Source: Dictyostelium discoideum (taxonomy: Eukaryota). From it: DNA of 64,000 bases. The stretch spans positions 288,001-352,000 of the forward strand of contig CM000154.2 of assembly GCA_000004695.1 (NCBI GenBank), in the 5' to 3' direction. The translations under genes were made by a program, and so were the position numbers. Positions 10,748-24,970 of this stretch are shown here, piece by piece (within the stretch, counting starts at the first letter, position 1; every line of letters begins with the position of its first letter). A model generated the notes under the pieces. It was given only the letters and a program-made list of their open reading frames with translations, had not been told where the DNA came from and made no database searches.

Positions 10748-12499
10748 ATGCAATCACTTGCACGTTTATCTCGTACCTCTTTGGTTCAAAAGGGTCTTGT
10801 TCCACAAACCATTAAAAACTATTCATCAGTTTCACAGTATGTAATAATTTTTTAAAAATAAAATAAAATAAAAAAAAAAAAAAAAAAAAACTTAATTAAA
10901 AAATTTGATCATCAAATTATTTGATTAGTTTTTTTTTTTTTATTATTTTTATTTTTATGATATTTTCTTTTTTTTTTTTTTTTTTTTAAAAACTAAAAAA
11001 TAAAGAAAAAAAAAAAAAGAATATTTTTTACTAACTAAATATTATTATTATTATTATTTTTTTTATTTTATTAATATAGAGCTGAAATTGATAATGAACC
11101 AAGATTTTTAGAATGTTTCAAAACTTTCTTTGATAAAGCAGCTGGTTTAACCAATTTAAAACCAGGTGTTTTAAATAATATGAAAGAATGTAATGTTGCT
11201 CTCCGTGTTGAATTCCCAATCAAGAATGAACATGGTGATGTTGATATTATTGCAGGTTATCGTGCACAACATTCACACCATCGTTTACCATGCAAAGGTG
11301 GTATTCGTTTCAGTGAAGAAGTAGATCTCCAAGAAGTTATGGCCTTAGCTTCATTGATGACTTATAAATGTGCTGTCGTCGATGTTCCATTTGGTGGTGC
11401 TAAAGGTGGTGTCCGTATCGACCCAAAGAAATACACTGTCGCCCAACGTGAAAAGATCACTCGTGCCTACACTCTCCTCTTATGTCAAAAGAATTTCATC
11501 GGACCAGGTGTCGATGTACCAGCTCCAGATATGGGTACAGGTGAACAAGAAATGGCATGGATTCGTGATACCTATCAAGCTTTCAACACCAACGATGTTG
11601 ATTCAATGGCTTGTGTCACTGGTAAACCAATCTCATCAGGTGGTATTCGTGGTCGTACCGAAGCTACTGGTCTCGGTGTTTTCTATGGTATCCGTGAATT
11701 CCTTTCCTACGAAGAAGTCTTAAAGAAGACTGGTTTAACTCCAGGTATCAAAGGTAAATCCATTGTTATCCAAGGTTTTGGTAATGTAGGTTACTTTGCC
11801 GCCAAATTCTTTGAACAAGCTGGTGCTAAAGTTATTGCCGTCGCCGAACACAATGGTGCCGTCTACAACGCCGATGGTCTCAACATTGATGCCCTCAACA
11901 AATATAAACTCCAACACGGTACTTTCATTGATTTCCCAGGTGCCACCAACATTGTCGACTCTGTCAAAGCCTTAGAGATCCCATGTGATATCTTAATCCC
12001 AGCTGCCCTCGAAAAACAAATCCACATTGGTAACGTCGCCGATATTCAAGCTAAATTAATTGGTGAAGCTGCCAACGGTCCAATGACCCCACGTGCTGAC
12101 CAAATCCTCCTCAATAGAGGTCATGTCATCATTCCAGATCTCCTCTTAAATGCTGGTGGTGTCACTGTATCATACTTTGAATGGTTAAAGAATCTTTCTC
12201 ACGTTCGTTTCGGTCGTTTGAACAAGAAATGGGAAGAATCCTCAAAGAAATTATTATTAGAATTTGTTGAATCAACCGTCAACAAGAAATTATCAGAAGC
12301 TGAAAGAAGCTTAATCATCCATGGTGCTGATGAAATCGATATCGTTCGTTCAGGTCTCGAAGATACCATGCAAAATGCTTGTGCTGAAACCAGAAAGACT
12401 GCAAATGAAAAGAACACTGATTACCGTTCTGCCGCTTTATACAATGCTATCATGAAGATTAAAGCTGTCTATGAATCATCTGGTAATGTCTTCTCTTAA
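10748..12499 (+). CDS. glud1: Mitochondrial glutamate dehydrogenase (NAD(P)+), 502 aa; join(10748..10836, 11080..12499), intron 10837..11079
   Basis: Exon 1 (MQSLARLSRTSLVQKGLVPQTIKNYSSVSQ) looks like a mitochondrial presequence and ends at a GTATGT donor in phase 2. The acceptor ATATAG is followed by AEIDNEPRFLECFKTFFDKAAGL...MKECNV, which is in frame with ORF 11180..12499. The K/GGAKGG GDH motif and a Rossmann fold (GFGNVG) are present. Overall similarity to animal GDH is strong. Confidence 0.9.
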
Positions 12500-12792
12500 A
12501 TATTTTAAAAAAACCCTTTTAAGTTACGCAAAAAAAAAAAAAAAAAAAAATCCAATACAAGTTATATTAAAATAAAATGAAAATAATAGATTTAATATTG
12601 TAAAAAAAAAAAAAAAAAAATCATCAAAATCAAATAATTTTGTTTAATTTTAAATTTTCTTTTTATTATTCTTCCTTAATCTATTTTTAATTTTATTATT
12701 TTTATTTTTTTATTTTTTAATATCAGCTAATCATTTCTGATATTGATTAATTTAATTAAAAAAATTGTTTTTTTTTTATTTATTTCTTAAAA

Positions 12793-14173
12793 TTAAAAAG
12801 TAATTACAAAAACAAAAAATAAAATAATGAATAGATAACCAGTTATTGATTGAGTTATTTTAAATGATGAGTTACAAAATAAATTTCTTTCAAATGCAAA
12901 TTTCCCACAATCATCACTTTCTTTAATATTGTAATCATTAATATTTTCGCACATTATTTTTCTACAATTTTTTGAAAGACAGGATTGTGATGATAATTTA
13001 TTATCTACTAATGAGCACTTATTGTCGTATGCACAGATTTCCAATTCGTCCGAATATATCAATTTCATTGTTTTTAGTGGGGAAATTGATTGATAACATT
13101 CATTATCTGAACAACTACATCTTTCAAAGTCTAAACACTCGTTAAATGTGGCATTTGGATTACATGATCTTAGGCTTGGTTCTACGTATTCAATACAAAT
13201 ATCTTTTGAGCACTAAAATAATTATAATAATAATAATAATAATAATGATAATAATAGTAATAATAAAAAGTTAAATATATTTTCATAATAATATTTTTAC
13301 TTTTTTTACAGACTACCTACATATAGTCCTTTATTGTAATCACAAAAATTGTAAGTAGCAGAACAATCAGCACCTAATCCAAGAGGTTGTTTTTTAGTAC
13401 AAACACTATTGTTACAATCCAATCTACCTAAACAATCGTCTGGAGAAGTGCACGATTCACCCTCTAATTTTATATTTTCACAAGAACAGTTTGAATTTGT
13501 TGAACATAAACAAAATTCATTATATTTGCAATTTGCATTTATTTTATTCCATCCATCACAGTTTTCAGAAGGTTTCAATGTGCATACATCATTAATACAA
13601 GCAAGTTTATTAGTTGAACAATCAGAATCTAATTTACAATCTTCACCTAATGTTGCAAACCCATAGTCTAAACATCTGTAAACATTTTCTTTATCCAAAA
13701 GACATAAAGTACCTAAAAAAATTGGTTATATTAATTTAATTACCCTTTTTGAATCCATTTTAGGTAATTATTATTTGAAAAAACAATAACTTACCAGCAA
13801 TACATAATTTTTCACCAACTTTACATTCATCACCCTGTCTCAAGTATTTATTGCATTTCCCAGTTTGATTTGATGTGAGAGAAGAGTTATAAAGGCAAGT
13901 TGTATCATAGCTACATTTTCCTTTATTAGTTCCACACTTATATTTTAACAGTTATTATTATTATTATTATTTTTTATACAAAAATAAAATATTTAATATC
14001 TTTTTTTTCTATTTATTTTATTTATTCAATTATTTTATTTGTTTATTTTATTTTATTTTAAAATTATTTGATCCACTTACAATATCATTTTCTTTTAAAC
14101 AATTTGGACAACTACTATCTACAACACTGTAAAATAATACTAAAAAAAATAGCAGAACCAAGTTTATTTTCAT
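12793..14173 (-). CDS. Cysteine-rich secreted, predicted GPI-anchored protein (tandem array unit 1), 348 aa; join(14173..14081, 13936..13795, 13712..13321, 13212..12793)
   Basis: Exon 1 (MKINLVLLFFLVLFYSVVDSSCPNCLKENDI) is a signal peptide and ends at GTAAGT. Exon 2 (CGTNKGKCSYDTTCLYNSS...GEKLCIA) ends with donor GTAAGT in phase 1. Exon 3 is the ORF 13306..13698, ends ...DYNKGLY and is followed by GTAGGT. Exon 4 (CSKDICIEYVEPSLRSCNPN... through ORF 12793..13068) ends NSSFKITQSITGYLFIILFFVFVITF, which is an omega-site plus hydrophobic tail like a GPI-anchor signal. All splice phases are consistent. Confidence 0.75.
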
Positions 14174-14520
14174 TTTTTATGTTTTCTTTTTTTTTTTAAA
14201 AAAAAAAAAAAAAATATTGATCTATTTTTAAAATTTTTTTTTTTAACCACCTTTCCTCTTTTTTCAAAGAAACAACATATCTTACTTTTTCAAATTTTTT
14301 AAACGCCCCATAAAAATAAAAACAAAAAAAAATAATTTTATTGGTAGATATTTTTAATTATTTGAAAAAGGTTTTTAAGAAATCAAAAAAAAAAAAAAAA
14401 AAAAAATAAAAAAAAAAAAAAAAAAAAAATAAAATAAAATACAAAATATTATTATTTTAATTTATTCATTTTAATTTTTTTTACTAGTAATAAAAGTAAT
14501 CACAAAAACAAAAAATAAAA

Positions 14521-14917
14521 TAAAGAATAAAGAAGTTATTGGCTGGGTGAGTTTAAATGAAGAATTACAATATAAATTTCTATAAAATACATCCTTTCCA
14601 CAATCATCACTTTCTTGAATACCTTAACTATAAACTAACGTACTACACACTGTTCTTCTGCAATTTCTAACAACACAGGAATTTACACCTAAATTGTAAC
14701 CATCCAATGAGCACTTATTATCAAATGTACACTTATCCAAATCGTCAGAATAATAATATTTTCCCATTTTTGGTGGGGATAGTTCATAGAACATTTTCCA
14801 TTTGAAAAATTACAAGTTTGAAGGGATGGGCATTGATCAAAAGTAGAATTAGGATTACATGATTTTGTTCTTGGTCTACATATTCAATACAAATATCATC
14901 TGAGCACTAAAATAATA

Positions 14918-14962
<45 letters not shown>

Positions 14963-15962
14963 AGGTTAATAATATTTTAATTAAAAAAAGTGTCTTATTT
15001 TTGGTGACTCGAAAAATTAAAAAAAACAAAAAAAAGAAAAAATTTAGATATTTATTTTCTTAAAATAAATTATTCTTCAGAATGCGAGTGGTGTGCAGGC
15101 AACGTGGTTTTTTTTCCAATTATTTGATTAGTTTTTATTTTTTACCTTTTTTTTTTATTTATAACACTCGTTCTGATTTTATTATTATTAAAAAAAAAAA
15201 AATATAAAAGTTAATAATATTTTAATTTTTTTAATTTTATTATTATTACTTACATATAATCCTTTATTGTAATCACAATTATTAATAGAGCAATCAGCAC
15301 CTAATCCAACTAGTTTTGGTTTAAAGCAAAAACCATTTTTACATGACATTTGACCAAAACACTGGCCTAAGGAAGTGCACGATTCATCCTTAAATTTTAT
15401 TTTTTTACAAGAATCATCTACACGATATTCATCATAATTGCAATTGGAATTCCGTCCATCATAATTTTCAGAAGGTTTCAATCTACATACCTTTTTAATA
15501 CAATCAGGTTGATTAGTTGCACAATCTGTATCTAATTCGCAATATTACCCTAAAGTTGCGAATTTATAGTATAAACATCTGTAAACATCATTTCTATACA
15601 AAAGACATGAAGTGCCTGACAAAAATTGATATTTTATTAATATAATTATATGTATATATTTAATAATATTACTATTCTATATTTCTTTAATTTAACTTAA
15701 AAATGTTTATATTTAAAACTTACCTTCTACACATAAATCATCTAAATTACCAAATCCACATTCATAACATGTTTCAAGTATTTTCTACATTTCCTAATTT
15801 GATTTGATGGTAAAGAAGAGTTTATTAATTTTTTATTTTTTATTTTTTTAATAAATCTTGTTTTATTTTTATGATTTACATACAATATCATTTTCTTTCA
15901 AATTGGACAACTACTATTTACAACACTGTAAAAAAATAATATAAAAATAAATACCGGAATTA
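14521..15962 (-). pseudogene. Decayed copy (unit 2) of the cysteine-rich tandem-array gene
   Basis: It is homologous exon-by-exon to units 1, 3, 4 and 5, but carries several disruptions. The exon 1 homolog reads ATG AAA TGA and has lost the CPICLEEN segment. The exon 2 5-prime half is deleted. Exon 3 has an in-frame TAA (ATLG* instead of ATLGEYCELD). The last exon has at least two frameshifts and an in-frame TAA (VCSTLVYS*). Confidence 0.7.
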
Positions 15963-16507
15963 AGTTTCATTTCATTTTAGGTTTTGAATAATAAAAAAAA
16001 AAAAAAAAAAATTCTTTTTTTTATACAAAACTTTCTTACTCTTTAAAATTTTTAAGCCATCGCTAAATTAATAAAAAATATAAAAATAGATAGCAATAAT
16101 AGTTTTTCTTACTTAAACTTTATTTTTTAGGAATATTATATCTTTTTTTTTTTTTAAAAATACAATCATTCACCTTTAAAAAAAAATAACTTATTCCCTA
16201 GAAAGCAAGAATAATATTATTCAATTTTTATATCAAAATTTTAAAAAACACAAACATTTACTTTCAAAAAAAGGGTTTGAATTTATTTTTTGATAAAGTA
16301 GTTAAAAAAAAAAAAAATTTAAACATTTTTCAATTAACTATTAATTACAACACAAAAAAAATAATTGCAAGCTAAAATTAGATTTTTTTTTTTTTAAATC
16401 TTATTTTTTATATTTTATTTTTTTCTGATTTTTAAAGGCCCCTTAAAAATTGAAAAAAAAAAAAATTGGTAGGTTTTTATAATTATTTTAAAGGGGTTTT
16501 AAGAATT

Positions 16508-16553
<46 letters not shown>

Positions 16554-16646
16554 AAAAAAGTTTTAGTCAATTTATTACTAGGAAAAATATTTATTTGTTT
16601 ATTTTATATATTGTTTGTTATTTTATTACTGGAAATAAAATTAAAT

Positions 16647-17960
16647 TTAAAAAGTAATAACAAAAACAAAAAATAATACTACAAATAAAGAGGTTATTGA
16701 TTGAGTGAGTTTAAATGAAGAATTACAGTATGAATCTCTAAAAAATGCATTCTTTCCACAATCATCACTTTCTTTAATATTATAACCACCTACTAAACCA
16801 CTACATATTTGTTTTTTACAATGTTTTGAAATACAGGATTTTGAGTTATATCTATAACCATCACCCATTGAGCACTTATTATCAAATGCACACTTATCCA
16901 AATCGTCTGAATAATAATATTTATCCATTTCTGGTGGAGTTGGATAAATTGTATAACATTCTTCATCTGAACAACTACATATTAGATCGGATGGACATTG
17001 GTTAGATGTAGCATTAGGATTACATGATTTTGTGCTTGGTTCAACGTATTCAATACAAATATCATATGAGCACTAAAATAATGATAATAAAAGAATTAAA
17101 TTAAAAAAAAAACAAGTTAATAATATTTTAAATTGTTTAATTTTAATTTTATTATTACTACTTACATATAATTCTTTATTGTAATCACAATTATTAATAG
17201 AGCAATCAGCACCTAATCCAACTAGTTTTGATTTAAAACAAACATTATTTTTACATGACATTTTACCAAAGCATTGGCTTGAGGAAGTGCACGATTCACC
17301 CTCAAATTTTATTTTTTTACAAGAATCATCTATACAATATTCATCATAATTACAATTTGAATCCGATCCATCACAATTTTTAGAAAGTTTCAATCTACAT
17401 TCCTTATTAGCACAAGAAAGTTGATCAGTTGCACAATCCGTATCTAATTCACAATACTCACCTAAAGTCGCGAAACTATGGTACAAACATCTTTTAACAT
17501 TATTTTTATCCAAAAGACATGAAGTGCCTGACAAAAATTGATATTAAATTAATATATAATAATATATTGCTATTATATTACAATATATTATTTTAATATA
17601 ATTTTTAAAAATTATAAAACGATAACTTACCACCAACACATAAATCTTTAAAATTACTAATTCCACATTCATCACCCTCTCCCAAGAATTTGGTACATTT
17701 TCTAATTTGACTTGATGGTAGAGAAGAGTTTTTAAAGCAAGTTGTACCATAGCTACAAGTTCCTATAGTCCCACACTTTTTTTTTTAATCAATTAAAATT
17801 ATTATTAATTATTTTTTTTTTTTTTTAATTAATTTTATTTTAATATTTTTAAAGATTTACATACAATATCATTTTCTTCCAAACAAATTGGACAACTACT
17901 ATTTACAACACTGTAAAAAAATAATATAAAAATAAATAATGGAAGTAAGTTTTTTTTCAT
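16647..17960 (-). CDS. Cysteine-rich secreted, predicted GPI-anchored protein (array unit 3), 342 aa; join(17960..17865, 17775..17631, 17527..17166, 17072..16647)
   Basis: It has a signal-peptide exon (MKKNLLPLFIFILFFYSVVNSSCPICLEENDI), GTATGT and GTAAGT donors and AG acceptors. ORFs 17073..17534 and 16647..16928 are exons 3 and 4. The C-terminal tail is SSFKLTQSITSLFVVLFFVFVITF. Confidence 0.75.
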
Positions 17961-18317
17961 TTTTAGTTTTTGAATAATAAAAAAAAAAAAAAAAAAAATT
18001 CTTTTATTTATACAAAAATTCAAAGGCATTACTCTTAAAAATTTTTAATCAATCCTCTAATTTTTCAAATTTAAACTTTGCTTTCTTGGAAAATTTATAA
18101 TAATATCTTTTTTTCTCTTAAAAAAAAAAAAAATAACAAAAAAAGTGCTTGTCCTTTGTTCCAGGGAAAAATATCTTTTTTAAAAAAAATAAAAAATAAA
18201 TTTTTTTTTTTTTAGGGTTTGTTTATTTGAAAAAAGTTTTAAAAAAAAAAAAAAAATAAACTTTTTTTTCACACCAATCATTTTTTAACTAATAATTGTA
18301 ATTACCCATTTTTTTAT

Positions 18318-18348
<31 letters not shown>

Positions 18349-18748
18349 ACCCAAAAAAGAGTTGTTTTATTTACAAAGAGTAGTTTTATCAGTTCTGCTA
18401 CAATAAATTTTAATCACATTTTTTCTTGGTAAATTTTAAAAAAAAACAAAAAATAAAAAATAAAAAAAAAAAAACAATCAATTTTTAATTTAATTATTTA
18501 TATTTTATTTACTTATTTTTTTTATTGAAATTATATTTTATGTTTAAAATATATATCAACCATTAATGGGTAACAGAAAGAATTTCAATTTTTTTTAAAA
18601 AAAAATTACATTATGATCATTTATAAAAAACCATTTTAATATAATTATGATCATAAAAAACCATTTTAATATAATTAATTAAAATAAAAAATAAAAAATG
18701 ATTATTTAAATTTATTTTATTTTAATATTTTTATTACCAGAAATAAAA

Positions 18749-19902
18749 TTAAAAAGTAATTACAAAACCAAAAAATAAAATAATGAATAAAGAAGTTATT
18801 GATTGAGCGAGTTTAATTGAAGAATTACAGTATCTATCTCTAAAAAATGCATTCTTTCCACAATCGTCACTTTCTTTAGCACCAAAGGTATCTGAAAAAC
18901 CACATATTATTTCTTTACAATTTTTTGAAACACAGGATTTTGTATTATAAAAAAGTGATTCATCCAATGAGCATTTATTATCAAATGCACACTTATACAA
19001 ATCGTCTGAAGCTTTAAATCTTTCCATTGGGGTTGGTAAATATCTATAACATTTTTCATCTGAACAACTACATTTTTGAAGTTCTGAGCATTGACTATAA
19101 GTAGCATTAGGATTACATGATTTCTTTATTGGTTCAAAATATTCAATGCATATATCATCTGAGCACTTAATAATAATAATAATAATAATATTAAAAAAAA
19201 AAAAAAAAAAGTTAATAATATTTTAATTTATTTAATTTTATTTATTAACTACTTACATATAAATCTCTATTGTAATTACACACATCATATTTGCAATTAG
19301 CACCTAATCCAAGGAGTTGATTAGAGCAAACATTATTTTTACAAGACATTGGACCTAAACACTGGCTATTATAAATGCACGATTCACCCTCCAATTTTAT
19401 TTTTGCACAAGAATTTCCTAAACAATATTCATCATAATTACAATTGGAATTCAAACCATTACAATTTGCAGAAGGTTTCAATCTACATTCATTGTTATTA
19501 CAAACAAGTTCATCAGTTGCACAATCAGTATTTAATTCACAATATTCAGTTAAAGTTGCGAATTTATTTGAAAAACATCTGTAAATTTTATTTTTATCCA
19601 TAAGACATAAAGTACCTGACAAAAATTGATATTTTTTATTAATATATATGTATTAAAATTCTATATATTTTTTTAATATAATTTTTAAAAATTATAAAAC
19701 TATAACTTACCCTCAATACATAAATCTCTTAAATTACCAGCTCCACATTCATCACCCTCTCTCAAGTATTTGGTACATTTTAAATTTTGATTCGATGGTT
19801 CATAAGTATTATTAAAGCAAGTTGTATCATAGCTACACATTTCATGATTGTTAATTCCACACTTTATTTTTTATAATCAATTAATATAATTTCAATATTA
19901 AA

Positions 19903-19933
<31 letters not shown>

Positions 19934-20057
19934 ATTATTATTTTATTATTTTAAATTATTTACATACAATATCATTTTCTTTCAAACAAATTTGACAACT
20001 ATTTACAACACTAAATAAAAATATAAAAATAAATAATGGAATTAAGTTTCTTTTCAT
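18749..20057 (-). CDS. Cysteine-rich secreted, predicted GPI-anchored protein (array unit 4), 338 aa; join(20057..19968, 19861..19711, 19615..19257, 19165..18749)
   Basis: Exon 1 reads MKRNLIPLFIFIFLFSVVNSCQICLKENDI and ends at GTATGT. Exon 2 (CGINNHEMCSYDTTCFNN...LCIE) is in phase 1. Exon 3 is ORF 19245..19622 and exon 4 is ORF 18749..19027. All reading frames are intact. Confidence 0.75.
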
Positions 20058-20655
20058 TTTTAGTTTTTGGATAATAAAAAAAAAAATTTATAAAAAAAAT
20101 TATTTACTTTTTTTCCTCTCCCAGTTTTTCTTTTGGGAAAAAAAAAAAAAAAAAAATAGAAAAAAAAAAATTACTTATTCTTCTTTATTTTCTAGGGAAA
20201 AATATCTTTATAAAAAATAAAATTAAAAAATTAAAAAAAAAGAAAAAAAAAAAAGAAAAAAAAAAAGAAAAAAAAAAATTACTTATTCTTTATTTTATAG
20301 GAAAAATATATTTTTAAAAAATAAAATAAAAAAATAAAAAAATTAAAAATAAAAAAAAAAAAAAAAAAATTTTAGGAGTAAGAATTCTTTGATTACTGAA
20401 AAAAAAAAATCTACAGGTTGGTCATTTCTTTTAGAATAATTTTAAAATCATATTTTCTTGATAAATAAATAAAAAAATAAAAAAAAAAAAAAAAACTAAA
20501 ATAAAATAAAATAATTTTAAAAACACACAACCAATACATATGAAATTTATATTAAAAATGGTACACACATCTAACAATTGTAACTAAGTGATATTTATTT
20601 TAAAAAATTAATAATAAAAAATAATTGAATTCAAAAGATATTGTTTTAATAGTTT

Positions 20656-21111
20656 TTAAAAAATAATTTGAAAAACAATAAATAAAACAATAAGTAAATA
20701 GGTTAATGACTGAGAGATTTTAGATGAAGAGTTACTACTGCAAAATAATAAATCTGCTCTAAGTTCTTCCTTTCCACAATCATCTTCTTCTTTAACCTTG
20801 TAATCACCAACATAACGTTGACAAATTTCTTTTCTACAATGTTTTGAAAGACAGGACTCTGATGAATATAAATTAACATTAAGTGAGCACTTGTTATCAT
20901 ATGCGCACTTTTCCAATTGGGATGATGCAATCATTTTGAGACTTTCTGGTGGATATATACCAGACTGATAACATTCATGATCTGAACAACTACAAGTTTG
21001 ATATGCTGAGCATTCGCTAACTGTAGCATTTGGACTACATGATTTTGGACTTGGTTGTACAAATTCTTGACAAATATTATCTGAACACTATAATAATAAT
21101 AATAATAAAAT

Positions 21112-21181
<70 letters not shown>

Positions 21182-21654
21182 CAGTTTAAAAAACTTACAT
21201 ATAATCCTTTATTGTAATCACAAAAACCATTATAATAACAATAATCATTATTGTTGTCACAATTATAAGTACCCAAACAACTACCACCTAATTCAATGAG
21301 TTGTGGATTGCCACAAACTCCGCTATTACATGTCAATCCACCTAAACAATCTCGTGAATAATTGCATGGTGAACCTTGTGTATTAATTTTTTGACATACA
21401 CAATTTGAACTTGCTGTACAATAACAATATTCATCATAATTGCAACTTTCATCAATATCATGACAGTGTGTATATTTAGTAGGGTCATGTGAACATACAT
21501 TATTAATACAATCAAGTTGATCAACACAATCAGATTGTAATTGACACTGTTCACCAAGAGATCTAAAACCGTAATCCAAACATCTATAAACATTACTTTT
21601 ATCCAAAATACAACTAGTACCTGTTAAGAGGAAATTTGATTTATATTTAAATTA

Positions 21655-21689
<35 letters not shown>

Positions 21690-21876
21690 TTGTGACATAC
21701 CAAGAATACATAAATAAACACCTGGATCACATTTATCACCACTTTTCAAGTATTTGGTACATCTTGGGGAAGAAGAGTTATTGCTCAAGCATTTTGTATC
21801 ATCACTACATGTTCCTCCTGAGTCACACTATTTCATTTTTATTTTTATTTTTATTTTTTATATTAATAATATTAAT

Positions 21877-21924
<48 letters not shown>

Positions 21925-22036
21925 CAATTTATTTACATACAATGTCATTTTCTTTCAAACAATTTGGACAACTACTATTTACAACATTGTAAAATAAAAT
22001 TAATAGAATAATAAATAAAATTGAGTTAATTTTCAT
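20656..22036 (-). CDS. Cysteine-rich secreted, predicted GPI-anchored protein (array unit 5), 358 aa; join(22036..21941, 21827..21701, 21620..21199, 21087..20656)
   Basis: Exon 1 reads MKINSILFIILLILFYNVVNSSCPNCLKENDI and ends at GTATGT. Exon 2 (CDSGGTCSDDTKCLSNNSSSPRCTKYLKSGDKCDPGVYLCIL) is in phase 1. Exon 3 is ORF 21181..21606 and exon 4 is ORF 20656..20934. This is the most divergent intact member. Confidence 0.75.
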
Positions 22037-22647
22037 TTAAGTTTTTTTTTTTTTTTTTATAACTTTATGATAATAAAAATAAAATAATATTGGAGATAAT
22101 AAAGAATATCGATAAAAAAAAAAATTAAAAAAAAAAAAAAAAGAAAAAAAAAAAGAAAAAAAAAAAAAATTAAAAACCAAAAAAACCAATTTTTATACCC
22201 CCTTAACACATCAATTAATAATTATATTTTTCAATATTATTTGAAAAGCCACGTGTTTTAATATCGTCTTCATTTCCTAAAAAAACAATATCTTTTTTTT
22301 TTTTTTTTTTAATTCAACCAAACAATTTTCAATTTACAATTTCTTTCAAACAAAAAAAAAAAAAAAAAAAAGCTATTACCAAAAGAAATTAATGAAAATC
22401 AAAACTAAAATTAAATTAGATTTTTTTTTTTTAAATTTTTTTTTGTTAATTTTAATTTTGATTTTCATGTATTTTTTTTAAAAAATATCTTATTTTTTTT
22501 TTTTCGCACTAAATATCAAATTATTAATAAAAAAAAAAAAAAAACAAATTTGGCCCGAACTATGAAGTAAATTGTTATTTAATTTTTAAATAATCAAATA
22601 ATTGTTTAAAATAAGTTTAAATTGTTTTTGTTATATAAATTATTTTT

Positions 22648-22707
<60 letters not shown>

Positions 22708-22850
22708 GTATTTTAACACCAGTTATACATAGTGTATTTTAGTTGTCCCATGCCAAAATTTAGTGTGAAAACTCACTGCCTTTTAGATAGAAAAATTTTC
22801 AAAAAAAAATACAAAAATAAGAGATAAAATAATGAATATACACACCAGGT

Positions 22851-23520
22851 ATCAAATCATTTGAATAATATTTAGCATTTTCTATTGGATTTGATCGTGC
22901 ATTATAACATTTGCTATCAGAACAGCCACAAGTTAGATAGCCGGGACATGTATTATTTGTATCATTTGGATTGCATGAACTTAAGCTTGGTTCGACATAT
23001 TCTATGCAAATATCATTTGAGCACTAAATAATAATAATAATTATATTAATATTAATAATAATAATAATAATAATAAATGTTAATTATTATTGTACCATTT
23101 TATTTGAATTAAACTCCATTTCAAAACATACATTAATCCTTTATTATAATCACAAACACCGTTTCCTGAACAATCTCCACCTACTTCAAAGAGTGACCTT
23201 TGAACACAACTATTTCTTTTCCCACATATCAAACTACCTAAGCAATTATTTGTTTTAGTACAATTTTCACCCTACAACTTGATTAATTTGCAAGAACTAC
23301 TGTAACCTACATTAGGGGTATATCCAGTTGTTTCACAATACTCGTTATAATTGCAATTGGCGTCATTACTGGCACAATCTTTTGAATACAATTTACATTT
23401 TAAACAAACAAATTCATCAGTAGCACAATTTAAATTTAATTCACAGTTTTCACCAAGAGTTGAAAACTCAAAATCCAAACATTGGTAAACTTTTTTTTTT
23501 ATCCAAAAGACATTTCATTT
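22851..23520 (-). pseudogene. 3-prime remnant (unit 6) of the cysteine-rich tandem-array gene
   Basis: Only the exon 3-like and exon 4-like regions remain (ORF 23272..23478, and CSNDICIEYVEPSLSSCNPN... near 22900-23030). Exon 3 has an in-frame TAG (IKL* where paralogs read IKLEGESC) and an A10 run that shifts the frame. Exon 4 is truncated after KYYSNDL and lacks the hydrophobic tail. No exon 1 or exon 2 homologs are found upstream. Confidence 0.65.
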
Positions 23521-24970
23521 TATTTTTTTTTTTTTTTCTTTATTTATTAAATCCAAAATAAAAATTTTTTGAAAAAAAAAACTAACAACCAATCCACGGT
23601 CAATCTAAATTTTAAAATTTTTTTTTTTATTTTTTTAATCTTTTCCTAGATTCCCAAAAAAAAATACGTTTCCAAAGCATAATTCCCCTAAAAAATTTTT
23701 AAAAAAAATATTTTAGAAACACAAAAGATATTTAAATTTTTTCCCTAGGTTTCTAAAAAAAAAAGAAAAAAATAAAAACATAATTCTTTTTTTTTTTTAT
23801 TTTTTTTTTTTGATCTTATCATCTTTTGGTGATCAAACCAATAATTTCTTAAATCTTTTTTTTTTTTTTTTTAATGCTTTTTTTTAATTATTTTATACTC
23901 TTAACAATTAATAAAAAGAAAAAAAAATAAAAAAAATTTCTAACTTTTGATTTTAATCATTTTCTTGTAAATGACAGAATAATTCTCTTTATTTAAAATA
24001 ATCCAGTAGAATATCAATTTTTTTTTTTAAAAAAAAAAAAAAAACATTTTTAAAATATTATTAGTCCTTTTCGTTTTATATTTTTTTAAAATATTATTAG
24101 TACTTTTCATTTAATATTTTTTTATATTGAACTGGTATAAAAAAAGTTTTTGGGTTGAAAAAAAAAAATTGGTGAGGAAAAAAAAAAAAAAAAATTAAAA
24201 ATAAATTAAATTAGGTAAAATTAAAATCAAATTAATAAACCTGTTCATTATTTAGTTTTCATTGAAAAAATTTTAATACAAATAAAAAAAAACAAATAAT
24301 GAATGAGTATAAAAAAAAAAATTTATGAGGAAAAAAAAAATTAGTGGGAAAATAAAGATTTTAAAAAGCAAAAAAAGAAAAAAAAAAAAAAGGTGGAAAA
24401 TTCCACAATAAAATTTTAACTCAATATAATAAAAATGCCTCAATTAATAATAATGTTTTAAAATTTCAGATGTATCATTCATCCATATGATGTTTCTGAA
24501 ACCAATAAATTCCCTTCACATGGACTTCTGATGATCCTCTTGATATAGCCATCAACCTTCAAGATTGTTATGAATATAGTATACAAGTTTGAATGATAAT
24601 TTTTTGATCACTTTAAACCTACCAAAAAACACAACACCATAAACAAATATATTTTTAAAATAATTAAACCAAATTAATATATGTATTATTATTTTTTTTT
24701 TTTCCACACATATTTTTTTTTAATAGGAATTTTTTTTTTTATTCCAGTTCATTTCCTATTTTTTTTTTTTACAAAATGGTTATAAAAACTTTATATTAAA
24801 ATTTAATATTATTATTATTAGAGTTTTCCAATTATTTTTTCCAGTATACTATTATTTATATTTTTAATATTAAGATGATAGAAATGAATTTATATTTTTT
24901 ATTTATTTATTTATACAACTTTTTATTAAATTTTATAAAAAATTAATTTTTATTTTTTTTAATTCAATTA

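Follow-up and report, generated by a model that had tools for sequence, protein, structure and literature searches.

Within a tandem array of related genes in Dictyostelium discoideum AX4, one member lies between intact neighbours and has no annotated protein of its own. This raises the question of whether the copy is a gene concealed by errors in the reference sequence, a locus that still works in some reduced form, or a gene that has died, and, in the last case, what its death says about the way in which the array evolves. A first-pass annotation, made from the letters of the sequence, had proposed that this second unit of the array is a decayed pseudogene bearing independent lesions in every exon, and had taken it as a sign of ongoing birth-and-death turnover. 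Here we combine a lesion-by-lesion account of unit 2 with comparison to orthologous arrays in other assemblies, and consider the protein family to which the array belongs. Coordinates are those of the window, by which we mean the whole 64,000-nucleotide stretch that was analysed (positions 288,001 to 352,000 of the forward strand of contig CM000154.2, assembly GCA_000004695.1).

The array and its neighbourhood

The window belongs to chromosome 5 of AX4, where the array adjoins a two-exon gene at 10748-12499 on the plus strand, the product of which is, exactly, the AX4 NAD-dependent glutamate dehydrogenase (GDH) XP_637204.1. Directly downstream of this gene, six related units occupy the minus strand from 12793 to approximately 23513 (Table 1). 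The array genes have four exons and code for cysteine-rich proteins which, judging from their predicted sequences, are probably secreted. Units 1, 3, 4 and 5 have open reading frames of 338-358 amino acids with 38-42 cysteines and GT-AG introns, and the first-pass description of units 1 and 3, which flank unit 2, as intact was accurate. Two of the products (units 1 and 5) match AX4 RefSeq proteins exactly, and short Logan contigs carry the spliced sequences of the same two proteins, which indicates that both are transcribed, with splicing as in the models. No AX4 protein is annotated for unit 2, as EAL63701 corresponds to unit 1 and EAL63702 to unit 3. The second relic in the array, unit 6, is truncated, and what remains contains a frameshift and one in-frame TAG.

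Gene models across the array call for some caution. Two AX4 RefSeq models within it apparently rely on an incorrect splice acceptor, and the automated annotation of newer Dictyostelium assemblies runs through unit 2, merging up to four array members in a single model.

Table 1. Members of the array and features of unit 2 (window coordinates)
Feature	Position	Strand	Description
Unit 1	14173-12793	-	Intact; four exons; 348 aa, 40 Cys; product identical to XP_637205.2
Unit 2, exon-4 remnant	14489..14906	-	Acceptor kept; multiple lesions
Unit 2, intron-3 insertion	14983..15227	-	245 bp; specific to the AX4 lineage; 38-nt direct duplication on either side
Unit 2, exon 3	15254..15615	-	Full length (362 nt); no indels; both splice sites retained
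Unit 2, exon-2 remnant	15724..15825	-	3' 102 nt of a 148-nt exon; donor retained
Unit 2, intron 1	15826..15883	-	Shortened to 58 nt (intact ortholog, 105 nt)
Unit 2, exon-1 remnant	15884..15975	-	Signal-peptide exon; ATG AAA TGA, with TGA at codon 3 (15969-15967)
Unit 2-unit 3 spacer	15976..16646	-	671 bp; upstream of unit 2; aligns end to end with the wild unit X-unit 3 spacer
Unit 3	17960-16647	-	Intact; four exons; 342 aa, 38 Cys; closest AX4 paralog of unit 2; XP_637206.1
Unit 4	20057-18749	-	Intact; four exons; 338 aa, 38 Cys; DDB_G0287483 (XP_637207.1)
Unit 5	22036-20656	-	Intact; four exons; 358 aa, 42 Cys; product identical to XP_637208.1
Unit 6	22838..23513	-	Second relic, more decayed than unit 2; exon-3-like and exon-4-like pieces only

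Lesions in unit 2

Unit 2 spans 15975 to approximately 14489 on the minus strand, slightly beyond the 14521-15962 first assigned to it. The homology that had been recognised in all four exons is borne out by nucleotide identities to unit 3 of 94, 84, 87 and 81% in exons 1 to 4, respectively, which are far above chance. Unit 2 also retains all three introns and its register within the array, as a non-processed pseudogene should. Lesions were called from codon-aware alignments to unit 3 and to the intact ortholog in assembly ACTFIW, and their coordinates were verified directly.

The premature TGA reported in the signal-peptide exon is present, and is accompanied by a 4-bp deletion after 15903, which takes away part of a CPxC motif and throws the exon out of frame; the GT donor of this exon, at 15883-15882, is retained. 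The reported loss of part of exon 2 corresponds to a deletion of about 90 bp, which took the 3' end of intron 1 along with its AG acceptor, and 45 nt from the start of the exon, with homology resuming at about 15825, and a further 1-bp deletion lies within the remnant at 15770/15769. In exon 3 the in-frame TAA noted previously is found at 15547-15545, at a codon that is GAG in the paralogs, and two invariant cysteines have been replaced (C133Y at 15462, TAT at 15463-15461; C146R at 15424, CGT at 15424-15422). The last exon had been described as containing frameshifts and a TAA; these resolve into a 1-bp deletion at 14876/14875, a 4-bp deletion at 14790/14789, and a change from TTA to TAA at 14626-14624. 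In addition, a third invariant cysteine is lost from this exon (C236F at 14807, TTT at 14808-14806), and the original stop codon has been destroyed by a 1-nt insertion (14491-14489). Intron 3 carries a 245-bp insertion that is missing in every paralog and in both wild orthologs described below. The duplicates which flank it, at 14945-14982 and 15190-15227, differ by one mismatch; the insertion has no match in Rfam and no second copy within the window, and the other loci fetched for this study gave AT-rich chance matches only.

Every exon is thus damaged, as first proposed, and the damage is more extensive than had been listed: the 4-bp deletion in exon 1, the 1-bp deletion in exon 2, the three cysteine losses, the loss of the stop codon and the insertion in intron 3 are all additions. 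Altogether, unit 2 contains three in-frame stops, four frameshifting indels and one deletion of a splice acceptor with part of an exon, besides its missing cysteines and stop codon. At least eight of these lesions are each disabling independently, and unit 2 is unable to encode a protein of this family.

Orthologs of unit 2 in other assemblies

Syntenic regions were fetched by means of a glutamate dehydrogenase variant that is common to three other assemblies. This approach gave ACTFIW (GCA_054859355.1, L016) and ACTFIR (GCA_054859385.1, L017), both labelled D. discoideum, together with one assembly labelled 'cf. discoideum'. In ACTFIW and ACTFIR the units follow one another in the order: ortholog of unit 1, best match to unit 2, a unit with no AX4 counterpart (hereafter unit X), ortholog of unit 3, and ortholog of unit 4. 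As assembled, the ACTFIW ortholog of unit 4 has a 1-nt frameshift. When exons 3 and 4 were used to build a neighbour-joining tree (200 bootstraps), AX4 unit 2 fell with the wild 'b' units from these two assemblies (FIW_b and FIR_b) at 100% bootstrap, and the clades of units 1, 3, 4 and 5 each mix AX4 members with those of other strains, likewise at 100%. The ortholog FIW_b is open, with 342 amino acids, 38 cysteines and canonical splice sites, and FIR_b is open except for a single 13-bp deletion in exon 1; the intron-3 insertion occurs in neither. In the AX4 lineage unit 2 has died, while at least one further lineage preserves it intact and in a third it has been damaged separately. The candidates P0001-P0003, which are 72% identical to unit 3, were also considered as intact orthologs of unit 2 and rejected, being just 47-57% identical to it; P0003, moreover, sits at a different genomic locus.

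How far apart these lineages stand affects the meaning of 'another strain'. Relative to AX4, ACTFIW and ACTFIR show approximately 3.6% mismatches over the 10 kb spanning GH18, GlnRS, GDH and unit 1, and 2.7-7.8% over the remainder of the 35 kb compared (3-6% overall); for D. discoideum strains, a 2025 preprint puts mean nucleotide diversity at 0.003. Either ACTFIW and ACTFIR represent a deep lineage, or this 35-kb region is unusually diverged. Given divergence of this size, the finding that unit 2 is intact in another strain may reflect a deep lineage rather than a segregating polymorphism. We also considered whether the 6-12% between-strain divergence of the array genes signifies hypervariability specific to the locus, and dropped this idea, as divergence is similar in the genes next to the array (GH18 dS 0.19-0.20) and across the 35 kb as a whole.

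Loss of unit X and a probable hybrid origin of unit 2

Unit X is intact in both ACTFIW and ACTFIR (345 amino acids, 38 cysteines) and absent from AX4. It forms a deep branch of the tree, and must therefore be older than the split between AX4 and the wild lineages. Its former presence in AX4 is suggested by the spacer upstream of AX4 unit 2, which scores 538 and 505 bits against the wild spacers between units X and 3, but no more than 64-70 bits against the one that precedes the unit 2 ortholog in the wild strains. Multiple alignment shows the same discontinuity, in that the 5' flank of AX4 unit 2 is of unit X type, whereas in the 3' half of exon 1, and in intron 1, the copy carries states of unit 2 type. 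From these alignments, AX4 probably lost unit X through an unequal crossover that left unit 2 with the unit X promoter. Diagnostic sites are few, and place the junction only within about -10 to +57 of exon 1.

A plausible history would begin with one ancestral gene, which is still single in ACTFIZ, and which would have been duplicated to units 2, X, 3 and 4 in the D. discoideum lineage. In the AX4 lineage, unequal crossover between the 5' ends of unit 2 and of its upstream neighbour, unit X, would then have deleted about 2.4 kb, consisting of the body of unit X and the spacer between the two genes, and left a hybrid of unit X promoter and unit 2 body. Freed from constraint, this hybrid copy would have accumulated nonsense mutations and small indels, the deletion of a splice site and part of an exon, and the intron insertion. 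Such a crossover would preserve the reading frame and could have left the gene alive; decay may have begun before or after it, and with any of the lesions.

Selective constraint on unit 2

When substitutions at 886 sites were polarised with the unit 3 clade as outgroup, 42 proved specific to AX4 unit 2 and 10 to FIW_b (p = 9e-6), an asymmetry that owes part of its size to the wild orthologs, whose branch is unusually short. The 42 AX4-specific substitutions are distributed 21/10/11 over the codon positions. Unit 3, taken as a control, gave polarised counts of 29 and 40, a difference that is not significant. A stricter count, confined to sites where every other clade is invariant, tells a similar story: in the unit 2 clade, 26 such sites changed on the AX4 branch and 5-7 on the wild path, compared with 11 and 15-16, respectively, in the unit 3 clade, and 13 and 12-13 in the unit 4 clade. 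At family-conserved sites, AX4 unit 2 changes two to five times faster than its relatives, and not by an order of magnitude. We considered gene conversion from unit 3 into the wild orthologs as a cause of the asymmetry, and rejected it because the changes on the AX4 branch are spread along the entire coding sequence, and persist when polarised with unit 4 and unit X.

The derived changes in unit 2 comprise 27 nonsynonymous and 7 synonymous substitutions, which is near the roughly 4:1 ratio of the sites themselves (approximately 829 to 197), and substitutions on the AX4 branch look neutral. Evolution is rapid across the entire family. Between AX4 and the wild orthologs omega ranges from 0.37 to 0.60 for units 1, 3 and 4, compared with 0.02-0.09 for GDH and GH18, which lie nearby; the two wild orthologs of unit 2 give 1.26 against one another, and AX4 unit 2 gives a pairwise value of only 0.68 against FIW_b. 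It is therefore the polarised counts, not omega, that argue for relaxed constraint.

These patterns bear on whether the locus might still work in some other way, by yielding a small peptide, a truncated protein made through alternative splicing, or a regulatory RNA transcribed from the hybrid promoter. The promoter region is of unit X type and undamaged in appearance, exon 3 retains both of its splice sites and exon 4 its acceptor, and a gene predictor applied to another assembly incorporated pieces of unit 2 exons into the fused model P0012. That model is, however, an artefact joining four genes, and the substitutions in unit 2 fall evenly across codon positions and strike invariant cysteines. 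No Rfam family matched the locus, and the longest ATG-initiated reading frame on the coding strand amounts to just 56 amino acids. An exact look-up of this 56-residue frame returned no record, a result that is uninformative about its expression, although transcript-derived records do exist for the spliced products of units 1 and 5. We consider residual function of this kind improbable.

Age of the decay and recurrence of the lesions

Substitutions on the AX4 unit 2 branch affect approximately 4-5% of sites, a figure comparable to half of the synonymous divergence that separates AX4 from the wild lineages (dS 0.07-0.20). As a rough inference, unit 2 would have drifted through most of the time since AX4 parted from ACTFIW and ACTFIR (dS about 0.1). 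The death of unit 2 in AX4 is old, not recent.

A second, independent assembly of D. discoideum (GCA_054883475.1, locus L001) agrees with positions 12000-24500 of the window at 99.3%, and the differences over these 12.5 kb consist of homopolymer lengths and 7 SNPs only. Within unit 2 all four exons are identical, and the two SNPs and one poly-T length that differ are all in intron 3. This near-identity invites the suggestion that the decay of unit 2 is a recent laboratory event, reflecting mutation load in the axenic AX3/AX4 lineage rather than natural gene death, given that AX4 is a laboratory derivative and that the sole assembly with the same lesions is close enough to share its lineage. 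Such a recent origin is very hard to reconcile with more than ten indel and nonsense lesions, a 245-bp insertion and approximately 26-42 lineage-specific substitutions in about 900 sites, because divergence of around 4-5% is beyond what decades of culture can yield; we regard it as highly improbable. Natural and long-standing decay remains the preferred reading.

The first-pass annotation had itself named assembly error in stops and frameshifts as the outcome that would overturn its proposal, and the identity of the exons in GCA_054883475.1 shows that the lesions are not assembly errors. That unit 2 is an intact gene obscured by sequencing or assembly errors in an AT-rich, homopolymer-rich reference is scarcely credible: the region is indeed about 20% GC with long A/T runs, and homopolymer lengths do vary between the window and the independent assembly, but every exon of unit 2 is the same in both, the disabling indels (ATTG, G, A, ATAG) all lie outside long homopolymers, the three stops and three cysteine losses are substitutions rather than indels, and 26-42 extra substitutions are present besides.

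Unit 2 as a pseudogene and turnover of the array

The presence of at least eight disabling lesions, their recurrence in an independent assembly, the neutral-looking substitutions and the existence of an intact ortholog elsewhere together lead us to conclude, with high confidence, that unit 2 is a non-processed (duplication-derived) pseudogene of a tandem family of four-exon, cysteine-rich genes in D. discoideum AX4. It resembles non-processed pseudogenes generally, as an intron-keeping tandem paralog with several independent lesions and neutral-looking substitutions, which clusters with its orthologs.

Copy number at the locus differs by lineage. The cryptic species represented by ACTFIZ has a single gene in place of the units 2, X, 3 and 4 of D. 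discoideum, and ACTFIY, also a cryptic-species assembly, has a 140-bp 3' fragment alone at this position (L015 13843-13981); ACTFIR has a dispersed paralog at another locus. Since array members group by orthology with 100% bootstrap, the array is not being homogenised. Sequence comparison thus supports evolution of the array by birth-and-death. The turnover that the first-pass annotation had proposed is upheld by the orthologous clades, the differences in copy number and the distinct lesion in ACTFIR; its description as ongoing needs qualification, because the inactivation in AX4 took place long ago.

A comparable situation is known from the tgr family, in which strains other than AX4 have open-frame alleles of AX4 pseudogenes (bioRxiv 10.1101/2025.10.22.684067). 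As in that tandem birth-and-death family, the array described here differs between strains in both copy number and functional state. The likeness does not extend to the proteins, however, as tgr genes encode immunoglobulin-like transmembrane proteins, and the array genes are unrelated to them, encoding small, cysteine-rich and apparently GPI-type products.

The protein family

The intact products begin with a hydrophobic N-terminus and end in a 16-residue hydrophobic tail (mean Kyte-Doolittle 2.8) that follows N-S-S. This layout, with a putative signal peptide and a hydrophobic C-terminal tail, fits a secreted or GPI-anchored surface protein. Between these ends the proteins contain a repeated module, G-[DE]-x-C-x5-C-x6-C-x4-C, and 38 cysteine positions are invariant across 12 family members. 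Source databases name XP_637205.2, XP_637206.1 and XP_637208.1 'Paramecium surface antigen repeat-containing protein'; the AX4 proteins of this name, together with DDB_G0287483, are the intact array members, and unit 2 is their dead paralog.

A search of units 1, 3 and 5 against Pfam-A with hmmscan (E <= 1) returned no match to the Paramecium surface antigen model, and listed only the EB module, DUF7107 and Dickkopf_N, all below their gathering scores. Dickkopf_N (PF04706) reached 14.8-19.1 bits against a gathering threshold of 25 bits. A profile search of PDB sequences with the family found nothing. An AlphaFold2 model was of low confidence (pLDDT 60, pTM 0.39), and a Foldseek comparison of this model with the PDB gave Pvs25, Dkk4, an ICK toxin and Dkk1 as best matches, all at E >= 0.05 (E >= 0.09 for the Dkk matches). 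The array proteins may resemble the disulfide-rich modules of the Dickkopf N-terminal/colipase-fold and knottin-like kinds, which we offer as a lead, not as an assignment to that group. A search of one literature library found no paper mentioning these array genes.

Implications

Unit 2 is a clean and ordinary case of gene-family turnover, and as a pseudogene settles no open question. Its practical value is to flag annotation problems around the array, in the form of fused models and doubtful RefSeq acceptors. Its evolutionary value is to bring together, within a few kilobases, duplication, probable deletion by unequal crossover, independent inactivation and progressive decay, all of which can be followed by comparing orthologs that are intact with others that are dead.

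More broadly, the high rate of protein change makes the array family a candidate surface repertoire. That the array is a fast-evolving cell-surface repertoire which differs among D. discoideum lineages, with unit 2 alive in some and differently dead in others, and its neighbour present or absent, is in our judgement an unlikely reading, for which the omega range of 0.4-0.7, and the value of 1.26 between the wild unit 2 orthologs, may be cited. If it were true, strain-specific content of the array might matter in recognition between cells, or between cells and bacteria, as for the tgr genes. In that context, divergence of 3-6% over 35 kb, set against 0.3% species-wide, could mark an old haplotype maintained under selection, and not merely a deep lineage.

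Loss and Decay of Array Members

An additional intact array member, uX (345 aa, 38 Cys), is present in two assemblies labelled D. discoideum, ACTFIW and ACTFIR (loci L016 and L017, respectively), and is lacking from AX4, where window positions 15976-16646 hold no counterpart. Because the AX4 u2 pseudogene carries a uX-type 5' flank, comparison of the aligned loci points to the removal of approximately 2.4 kb from AX4 by unequal-crossover deletion. Within its third intron, u2 further bears a 245-bp insertion, which has a 38-nt direct target duplication on its flanks and contains a GC-richer unique core (GAATGCGAGTGGTGTGCAGGCAACGTGG, 15080-15107); this insertion had no match in Rfam, and neither the window nor the fetched loci contain a further copy.

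Positions of array features discussed in the text
Feature	Positions	Strand	Remarks
uX, ACTFIW	L016 16314-17659		Between u2 and u3 orthologs
uX, ACTFIR	L017 15857-17200		Between u2 and u3 orthologs
u2 intron-3 insertion (245 bp) plus flanking duplication	window 14945-15227
u6	22838-23513	minus	Second family relic, more decayed than u2; exon-3-like and exon-4-like pieces only
u3 intron-2 acceptor region	17527-17631		RefSeq model disagreement
u4 intron-2 acceptor region	19615-19711		RefSeq model disagreement
Fused array gene models	L001 10001-17240; L017 12022-19163; L016 11908-15260 and 16314-19621

The relic u6, whose top match (57%) is ACTFIZ_012225 (protein record P0009, from a cryptic-species assembly), has lost exons 1 and 2, and combines one in-frame TAG and a 5' frameshift with a truncated last exon. 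No counterpart of u6 was found in ACTFIR in the interval from the 269-aa gene to the u5 ortholog. Relative to the ACTFIT assembly, the window shows a cluster of three A>G differences within u6, at 23448, 23436, and 23430. Elsewhere, a 140-bp last-exon fragment, 85% identical to u4, stands alone between the u1 and u5 orthologs of the cf. discoideum assembly ACTFIY (L015 13843-13981); as this fragment is all that is left there, the gene of the u2/u3/u4 type was almost wholly deleted in that assembly. In the ACTFIW u4 ortholog, exon 1 (L016 21514-21608) measures 95 nt rather than 96, because a T run is short by one base, and the resulting frameshift could be either a nanopore homopolymer error or a genuine lesion.

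Comparison of the window (about 1000-36000) with loci L016, L017, and L018 revealed 3-6% divergence between AX4 and the two D. discoideum-labelled assemblies across all 35 kb compared, with a GH18 dS of 0.19-0.20; species-wide diversity in D. discoideum is reported to average 0.003 (preprint). Such divergence means that the two assemblies represent a deep lineage, or else that the haplotype block here is unusually old.

Gene Models and Transcription

Logan contigs of about 1 kb, derived from sequencing runs and underlying protein records P0013, P0016, and P0017, encode the u1 and u5 proteins in spliced form, which shows that both genes are transcribed and that their modelled splicing is correct. 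No comparable records were found for u3, u4, or u2. For u3 and u4, AX4 RefSeq has XP_637206.1 (333 aa) and XP_637207.1 (327 aa), which depart from our models at the exon 2/3 junction, where they lack 9-11 residues including one invariant cysteine. Our junctions match those that RefSeq gives for u1 and u5, as well as the ACTFIT annotation and the family alignment; the RefSeq models for u3 and u4 probably use the wrong acceptor. In the newer assemblies, gene models run array members together, two to four at a time, giving single products of 654-1263 aa; one such product in the AX4-like assembly (P0012, 1147 aa; locus L001) includes exon pieces threaded from the u2 pseudogene. These fused models are annotation artefacts, which inflate protein databases.

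Orthologs of the u2 Pseudogene

The u2 orthologs of ACTFIR and ACTFIW differ at 27 nonsynonymous and five synonymous positions (omega 1.26, on small numbers), which could reflect relaxed constraint in the ACTFIR copy, or else diversifying selection. The former copy is frameshifted by a 13-bp deletion in exon 1, directly after the signal peptide (L017 about 15185-15200), and is open elsewhere. If this deletion is real, then the u2 gene has been independently inactivated in a second lineage.
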